In this document: positions 63,214-63,511 of the stretch, in pieces
How the letters are laid out: every line of letters starts with the position of its first letter
Numbering within the stretch: the first letter of the stretch is position 1
IMG/VR virus record: IMGVR_UViG_3300004369_000002
Location: 32,001-96,000 of that record
DNA from: a virus
Reading direction: 5' to 3' (one strand)
DNA: 64,000 nt
Program-made: the position numbers and the translations under genes
Notes under the pieces: generated by a model
Told to the model about the DNA's origin: nothing
Database searches by the model: none
What the model saw: the letters and a program-made list of their open reading frames with translations, nothing else

Positions 63214-63323
63214 CCAATCAGATAAATCCAACCAAAACATCGGACAGAAAAATATGGCACAGCACCGCCGCCGGTTTTGGGGTGCGCTCCGAAAGTCCCG
63301 CAGGGGTAGGGGGGTGGGGTGGT

Positions 63324-63352
63324 CGAACGTGTGTTCGTCGAACGTGTGTTCG
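63324..63352. promoter_or_regulatory. two tandem LexA (SOS) boxes
   Basis: CGAAC-GTGT-GTTCG at 63324-63337 and 63339-63352. Confidence 0.7.
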
Positions 63353-63357
63353 GTTGG

Positions 63358-63419
63358 TTGTCCACAGGGTTTTCCACTGTTTTCACAGGGTTGGGGGGTG
63401 GTTTTGGGGTTTGTCCACA
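63358..63419 (+). other. DnaA-box cluster, putative origin
   Basis: TTGTCCACA at 63358 and 63411; degenerate TTTTCCACT at 63370 and GTTTTCACA at 63379. Confidence 0.65.
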
Positions 63420-63511
63420 GGTTTTTGGTGTAGGTGGGGTTGCGTTTAGGCTTGTTTGTTGATAGGGTTGTGTTTGTTATTGTTATCTGATTCTTTTGGA
63501 AGGAGTTTGTT

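Follow-up and report, generated by a model that had tools for sequence, protein, structure and literature searches.

Phages that read host LexA directly are known, and CTXphi and coliphage 186 (tum) are among those controlled in this way. DnaA boxes are known from replication origins and from a few promoters, and P1 oriR, F, pSC101 and RK2 are examples of DnaA-assisted plasmid or phage origins; LexA operators are, to our knowledge, not a known part of such origins. Here we analyze a non-coding gap of about 300 bp (63214-63511) in viral DNA that carries sites for both host proteins side by side. The gap lies in a stretch of 64,000 nucleotides, hereafter the window, which corresponds to bases 32001-96000 of the 104,839-bp IMG/VR record IMGVR_UViG_3300004369_000002; this record is linear, with an estimated completeness of 71%. 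Positions are those of the window and features are on the plus strand unless stated otherwise, the LexA operators and the composition switch being given without strand. The motifs that a preliminary description had listed in this gap were all recovered at the same positions. We propose, with a probability of roughly 40%, that the gap serves an actinobacterial phage as a control cassette that responds to SOS and to DnaA and sits where two operons meet.

Several described systems come close to this arrangement. Promoter P1 of phage GIL01 is, with gp7, under host LexA control (PMC4551915). In Escherichia coli, LexA and DnaA act together as repressors of uvrB, recN and dinJ (PMC6015884). As in the uvrB region, where the two proteins compete or cooperate, LexA and DnaA boxes are interleaved here in one control region; however, uvrB is a chromosomal repair gene with a proteobacterial LexA motif and a mapped promoter overlap, whereas the present locus belongs to an actinobacterial phage. 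The gap shares with GIL01, CTXphi and 186 the presence in phage DNA of SOS boxes for the host repressor, by which those phages time expression, but their sites overlap defined lysogeny or antirepressor promoters and are not accompanied by a DnaA-box array. Like oriC (PMC4285127) and the DnaA-assisted origins, the gap has co-oriented high-affinity DnaA boxes in non-coding DNA at a skew switch. Unlike the DnaA-assisted origins, it lacks iterons, an adjacent Rep gene and a clear unwinding element, and its boxes are missing in close relatives. The injection stop signal of T5 (NC_005859, 9140-10149; locus L236) is also a non-coding region of a large siphovirus with perfect host sites of both kinds: a perfect E. 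coli LexA box, CTGTATAAATATACAG, at 9411-9426 and a perfect DnaA box, TGTGGATAA, at 9510-9518, 99 bp apart. The T5 region differs from the gap in its length of about 1 kb, its place within a 10-kb terminal repeat, its large palindromes and its nick site.

LexA operators and DnaA boxes in the gap

The first LexA operator, TCGAAC-GTGT-GTTCG, occupies 63323-63337, and an identical second one abuts it at 63338-63352, giving a 15-bp period. Both are perfect CGAAC-N4-GTTCG sites, and the earlier report of two identical boxes, TCGAACGTGTGTTCG and its repeat, is confirmed. Of the 12 bases specified in the Mycobacterium tuberculosis LexA consensus, TCGAAC(N4)GTTCGA (PMC3381160), operator 1 has 11. No other perfect CGAAC-N4-GTTCG site occurs in the window, and the whole record has four, versus 0.10 expected. 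The remaining two (L001:7476-7491 and L001:9911-9926, genome positions 99476 and 101911) are outside the window and apparently intragenic, one of them falling in a DUF932 gene; all four sites lie in the last 10 kb of the record.

Scanning one genome per prokaryotic species for an abutting LexA pair yielded 112 stretches, five of which, all actinobacterial, were tested. The pair lies directly beside the lexA open reading frame in four of these loci (L134, L166, L169 and L158), the organisms being a Propionibacterium sp., an Actinomycetaceae metagenome-assembled genome, a Georgenia sp. and an Acidimicrobiia metagenome-assembled genome. In the fifth, it is located beside a LysM gene that neighbours lexA. 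The phage pair thus copies the design of the host lexA operator. In the divergent lexA/LysM-gene region of Actinomycetota, as here, two CGAAC-N4-GTTCG palindromes are separated by exactly one base; unlike the host operator, the phage pair adjoins DnaA boxes and G tracts instead of lexA and has no recognisable promoter overlap.

DnaA box 1, a perfect TTGTCCACA (63358-63366), begins 5 bp past the LexA pair. This nonamer is a high-affinity DnaA box in M. tuberculosis and Streptomyces coelicolor (PMC4285127, Table 1). Cluster scoring places two degenerate co-oriented DnaA-like boxes next to it (63370-63388), TTTTCCACT at 63370-63378 and TTTTCACAG at 63380-63388; their spacings of 12 and 10 bp put them roughly in helical phase with box 1. 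A second perfect TTGTCCACA, box 4 (63411-63419), is found with the repeat D1, TTGTCCACAGGKTTTT, 53 bp or five helical turns after box 1. Of the four co-oriented boxes described previously, two are therefore perfect, while one has 2 mismatches and the other is an 8-mer core with a deletion. The array is the top-scoring DnaA-box cluster of the record, and its score was reached by none of 2000 dinucleotide shuffles of the gap. Given the motif statistics for LexA and DnaA, chance matches are excluded, and the agreement with the actinobacterial consensus noted earlier stands: judged on their sequence, these are likely genuine sites for host factors. The third perfect TTGTCCACA of the window (61089-61097, minus strand) lies inside a DUF732 gene, 2.2 kb left of the cassette.

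Two G-quadruplex-prone G tracts accompany these sites. Tract 1 (63303-63322) has a G4Hunter score of 2.40, the highest window in the 105-kb record, and tract 2 (63388-63409), which forms a direct repeat with tract 1 (family D6), has the third highest (2.12). Both tracts had been reported before, and their presence is borne out by seven runs of at least four G, versus 3.2 expected (p=0.015). The gap gave no match to Rfam and no stable local fold (z=0.86) that would point to an RNA element.

Recurrence of the composite in other phages

Viral sequences were searched with the tandem-pair pattern, the DnaA boxes not being part of the query. This gave 67 viral stretches, corresponding to 54 non-redundant loci. 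Up to 150 bp from these viral pairs, perfect DnaA boxes reach 0.91 versus 0.032 per kb, a 29-fold enrichment, and none was seen near the 80 cellular tandem LexA pairs examined. A scan of metagenome contigs for a pair followed by TCCACA added 13 composites, in which typically 2-11 bp separate the LexA pair from the closest DnaA box. The largest arrays in other contigs have 4-5 LexA boxes and at least 7 DnaA boxes. One composite (L039/L077) combines three LexA boxes, four DnaA boxes at 11-bp pitch, a T-rich tract and three repeats of about 55 bp, and another (L051) has a 300-bp AT-rich tract. Many of the composite contigs share genes with the phage studied here, so that the composite is a trait of a broad related phage group. 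The first downstream open reading frames of the other composites had no PHROG match, and their larger neighbours are varied (ArdC-like, YqaJ-like, terminase), with no consistent link to replication genes. Among 17 viral contigs available in full, 8 break less than 800 bp from the tandem LexA pair; regions with such pairs therefore seem to break assemblies.

The homologous junction in relatives

The 162-amino-acid gene located two genes upstream of the gap (62429-62917) has 129 relatives in viral contigs, and 80 of these loci were fetched. A 7-way alignment of the window with L007, L230, L241, L245, L257 and L258 reveals a conserved non-coding core at the composition switch, with GATAAAYC, CAAAAATNTG, CCC-ACGG and GAAAAG..CCCG blocks. 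This core corresponds to the left ~100 bp of the gap and is kept in at least seven related phage lineages. Its left block, AATCAGATAAATCCAACCA (63216-63234), shares 17 of 19 bases with L230, in spite of a non-homologous upstream gene in that contig, and GATAAAYC is found in 5 of the 7 lineages. The A-rich block AGAAAAATATGGCA (63246-63259) has an aligned counterpart of the CAAAAATNTG type in 6 of 7, and within the right block, GAAAGTCCCG (63291-63300), AAAGTCCCG is invariant in the window, L007 and L230. The heptamer AGTCCCG is present at the composition cusp of L241, L244, L245 and L257. No conserved RNA structure of the core was detected in the 7-way alignment. Two shorter candidates were also considered: AAAGTCCCGYAGGKGT has 16 matches in viral contigs, of which only the L007 contig is homologous and the others look random, and AAGTCCCG is not enriched near LexA pairs generally.

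The host-factor sites behave differently from the core. Perfect LexA boxes were found in none of the 80 fetched loci, and DnaA boxes at the junction in L258 alone. Conservation of the boxes in relatives, which the preliminary description had named as a test of its proposal, is thus partial: some are present in L007, L230 and L258, but L241/L244, L257 and L245 share the core and the cusp and have no perfect LexA or DnaA box there. The order and orientation of the sites vary between the window, L007 and L230. Since relatives keep core, cusp and promoter but mostly not the boxes, the LexA and DnaA sites are best regarded as a putative accessory cassette, placed between the conserved core and the next promoter and dispensable in close relatives.

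In L230 (5800-6228), a GGGC-repeat tract comes after the cassette, and the contig then ends in 400 bp or more of microsatellite-like repeats (CGCATGA, ACACAT, GCAC). The gene before that junction (L230:5054-5587) is S-adenosylmethionine decarboxylase-like by eye and is unrelated to the gene at this place in the window.

Promoters and the proposed control function

A consensus promoter scan of the gap returned nothing, and neither the scan nor inspection by eye found, on either strand, a promoter overlapping the LexA boxes. By eye, a T-rich stretch (63440-63497), which includes the right arm of a chance repeat described below, contains a -35-like hexamer, TTGATA (63459-63464), with a weak -10 element at TATTGT (63478-63483) or TGTTAT (63481-63486). 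No recognisable terminator separates the upstream operon from the cassette. Relatives have strong promoters at the corresponding position: TTGACA-N18-TACCAT in L007, TTGACA-N17-TAGACT in L241 and TTGACA-N17-TATTCT in L258, the latter two apparently leaderless. In at least eight phage families, counting those loci where a strong sigma-70-type promoter is recognisable, such a promoter points away from the LexA pair and starts 41-65 bp from it. This stereotyped distance between the pair and the -35 element is seen in L031, L033, L036, L042, L047, L049, L071, L224 and L227/L228/L234; in the L031 family, the interval from pair to promoter contains an 18-bp palindrome, GTGTGACAAGAGTCACAC. Operators placed upstream in this way are not accounted for by a simple repressor model.

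The gene downstream of the gap encodes a metallophosphoesterase, and a LexA box accompanies it in three arrangements. In the window, the cassette precedes the gene as described above. L007 has the DnaA boxes first, followed by two half-degenerate LexA boxes; a G-quadruplex-prone spacer of 50 bp then leads to the promoter and the metallophosphoesterase gene. In L003, a rearranged relative, a single LexA box is located upstream of the metallophosphoesterase promoter.

Four points put control or insulation of transcription ahead of the other possible functions: promoters lie at a stereotyped distance from the pairs, LexA boxes go with the metallophosphoesterase gene in three arrangements, the sites come and go among relatives, and uvrB, recN and dinJ offer a precedent. 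In particular, the position of the pairs 41-65 bp upstream of outward promoters suits a control cassette better than an origin. The phage would thereby probably link a gene unit to host stress through docking sites for LexA and DnaA, and perhaps its replication as well. As long as the host is undamaged, the cassette would be occupied by two dimers of LexA and a short oligomer of DnaA, and the bound proteins could damp or insulate transcription coming from the upstream operon or from the downstream promoter. During the SOS response, self-cleavage of LexA together with an altered level of free DnaA-ATP would release this block. Expression of the downstream unit would in this way be tied to DNA damage and to the replication state of the host, and local strand opening usable in replication may be tied to the same signals.

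Several observations weigh against a control cassette. The LexA boxes lie clear of any convincing promoter; downstream, the best -35-like hexamer comes 104 bp past the pair and is followed by a weak -10 element. DnaA arrays of at least 7 boxes, as found in other phages, exceed what promoter control needs, and a plain operator leaves the skew cusp unexplained.

Strand composition and a possible replication function

The plus strand switches from C/A-rich to G/T-rich exactly at 63272-63273, where the cumulative keto skew has its minimum (63272). At +0.99 (63270), the jump here exceeds every other in the record, the runner-up reaching 0.29. A jump of -0.56, the strongest in the opposite direction, coincides with the stop of the metallophosphoesterase gene (64270), so that the G/T-rich stretch amounts to a 1-kb island (63272-64270) comprising the gap and one gene. 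The skew flip noted in the preliminary description is thus sharp and real at the gap but local, since the cumulative skew reverses after 1 kb instead of changing genome-wide. In the plus-strand genes upstream, the third-position keto skew becomes gradually more negative toward the gap, going from -0.27 to -0.96 in about 3 kb. The extreme cusp spans 60500-64000 of the window, with the flip to +0.55 inside a few bases, and it also exists in L104, L241, L244 and L257. The skew goes from -0.72 to +0.42 in L104, the contig of L007, and the jump amounts to 1.28 in L241/L244 and 0.90 in L257. Over the whole record, third positions make the plus strand C/A-rich in 29 of 36 genes, whichever strand encodes them, so the background bias is strand-specific and unlinked to the direction of transcription.

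A recent inversion of the island was considered and rejected, because L007 keeps the same island, with a metallophosphoesterase of 44-45% amino-acid identity, and because the homologues of this gene located away from such junctions (L003-L005) have neutral third-position skew. The polarity of the cusp fits prolonged single-strandedness of the strand running 5'->3' away from the core on both sides. A replication bubble, a D-loop or divergent R-loops would each yield this polarity, and the G-rich non-template strand downstream would favour R-loops. No leftward promoter was found. The sharp right end of the island at a stop codon looks like the boundary of a transcription unit.

This asymmetry brings in the strongest alternative to a control cassette, an origin gated by the SOS response. 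DnaA would open the DNA at its array, and LexA bound 5 bp away would block DnaA oligomerisation until SOS induction; the G-rich non-template strand may aid a priming R-loop, with replication running mostly leftward and about 1 kb rightward. The phased, co-oriented boxes of the record's top cluster are what this explanation calls for, and the locus lies in the DNA-metabolism region of the genome, flanked by genes for the primase/helicase (6.6 kb upstream) and for SSB (5 kb downstream). The synonymous-site bias that disregards gene orientation is an asymmetry of the replication type, and its only strong reversal starts here, going from minus to plus as at origins, with a leftward gradient of about 3 kb. 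Other composites (L039/L077 and L051) resemble classical origins, and three other viral records concentrate 2 or 3 of their 2-5 perfect DnaA boxes in the module. We nevertheless consider an SOS-gated origin, though a serious rival, less likely than a control cassette. The cusp exists in L241/L244, L257 and L245 without a perfect box for either protein, which implies that, if the junction is an origin, the conserved core is essential and the boxes are not. The changes in order and orientation of the sites among the window, L007 and L230 also argue against it. Beside the boxes of the gap, no clear unwinding element, iterons or DnaA-trios could be seen, only a moderately T-rich 60 bp that holds the promoter candidates. 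Moreover, the phage encodes its own primase/helicase, the island stops in the manner of a transcription unit, and related genomes have several LexA pairs, with L080 and L090 on one contig and L037 and L066 likewise.

A broader version of this idea, which we regard as rather unlikely, gives the leading part to the core: it could be a new kind of phage replication start site, the LexA/DnaA cassettes would license its firing according to the SOS and replication state of the host, and the T5 injection stop signal would share this logic. The cusp would then be a mitochondrion-like footprint of long-lived single-stranded DNA, synonymous sites being up to 96-98% A/C to its one side and the DNA to its other side G/T-rich.

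Further alternatives

The decoy suggested as an alternative in the preliminary description would act without any local function: as phage copies accumulate, they would absorb LexA, leading to partial SOS derepression, and DnaA, curbing initiation in the host. From phage to phage, the boxes differ freely in number, order and orientation while the sites stay near consensus, other contigs have arrays of up to 4-5 LexA and at least 7 DnaA boxes, and gain and loss among close relatives suit an accessory role. However, two LexA and two strong DnaA sites per genome make a weak sink, and the coupling of the sites at 2-11 bp, together with the stereotyped distance to promoters, suggests a local function. 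A titration sink is thus improbable as the explanation of the cassette.

A roadblock of the T5 injection-stop type, in which bound host proteins would pause the entry of DNA or block read-through between two segments, appears more improbable still. In its favour are the perfect LexA and DnaA boxes in the T5 signal and an upstream operon that enters the cassette without a recognisable terminator. The element is also 9.6 kb from the end of the record, similar to the distance between the T5 signal and its terminus. The record is, however, a 71%-complete fragment without a terminal repeat, so the 9.6 kb may not be the distance to the true genome end; no repeat in it exceeds 54 bp. No T5 genes were seen in the phage, the large inverted repeats of T5 are absent, and the mechanism of the T5 signal is itself unexplained. 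T5 A1 was tried as a counterpart of the metallophosphoesterase and dropped, having no Pfam match. The end or packaging junction proposed earlier is likewise unsupported in a record without terminal repeats.

Finally, chance motifs, an assembly chimera or a repeat-bounded small mobile element, which an inverted repeat flanking the gap and the abrupt change of composition might suggest, can be practically dismissed in view of the motif statistics, the occurrence of the same junction in independent contigs from other samples, a repeat at chance level and the lack of a second copy of the element in the record. The 10-bp inverted repeat reported previously, AATCAGATAA (63216-63225) and TTATCTGATT (63483-63492), does exist, its left arm within the left block of the core, but it is not significant: an inverted repeat of at least 10 bp arises in 34% of half-wise shuffles. 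It is a chance by-product of a C/A-rich left half and a G/T-rich right half, whose compositions are mutually complementary. A cruciform was rejected as well, the fold energy of the region being the same as that of half-wise shuffles (z=0.34).

Gene neighbourhood and the source of the DNA

The gene content, namely a DUF732 protein, the metallophosphoesterase and the primase/helicase similarities, points to an uncultured large siphovirus of Actinomycetota as the source of the record. The metallophosphoesterase is most similar to proteins of cluster-J-sized mycobacteriophages (35% identity) and the primase/helicase to proteins of Arthrobacter phages (33% identity). Protein searches gave relatives at no more than 35% identity, and nucleotide searches with the element and two other composites returned no relatives among isolated phages. 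Upstream of the gap are genes for a class II ribonucleotide reductase, ThyX, the primase/helicase and an RNase-E-like protein, and downstream the SSB gene and a DUF932 gene. No integrase, no other lysogeny gene and no DNA polymerase of family A, B or C was found in this 71%-complete record, a degree of completeness at which missing genes prove nothing.

The last gene of the C/A-rich upstream operon (62935-63213; 92 amino acids) matches phrog_13182 (E=1.6e-26) and has a keto skew of -0.96 at codon position 3. According to frame analysis, it has no ATG, GTG or TTG start ahead of residue 62. An ATC at 62935 lies 7 nt past a Shine-Dalgarno-like aaaggaa, in a region nearly devoid of G and T, and because of this position it may be a non-canonical start. 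On the other side of the gap, a ribosome-binding site, GGAAGGAG (63498-63505), precedes the metallophosphoesterase gene, which starts with the ATG at 63512 and extends beyond the window to 64264 (Pfam Metallophos, E=8e-19; phrog_1649, E=3e-33); the ribosome-binding site and the part of the gene inside the window span 63498-64000. This gene forms the G/T-rich island, with a keto skew of +0.55 at codon position 3. Adjoining the replication genes, an 845-amino-acid open reading frame (57607-60144) has no relatives in Pfam, PHROG or PDB. Structural comparison of its Atlas model gave weak neighbours in DUF3626/Mu-F-like and DarT-like ADP-ribosyltransferase clusters, with template modelling scores of at most 0.35 by query.

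Implications

Full-text literature searches returned no description of a composite of LexA and DnaA sites in phage genomes, nor was a published account found of a recurrent, tightly coupled cassette of a LexA pair and a DnaA array in phages. The cusp deserves attention for its own sake: synonymous sites are 96-98% A/C across several hundred bases and then flip, and this happens in several lineages, which implies a very strong local mutational or selective process that is strand-specific. The source of this process can now be mapped to a core of 100 bp. If the proposed control function is true, the cassette would be a compact sensor combining two host signals, DNA damage and the potential for replication initiation. 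It also supplies two candidate host factors for other non-coding regions of this kind that lack an explanation, the T5 injection stop signal among them.

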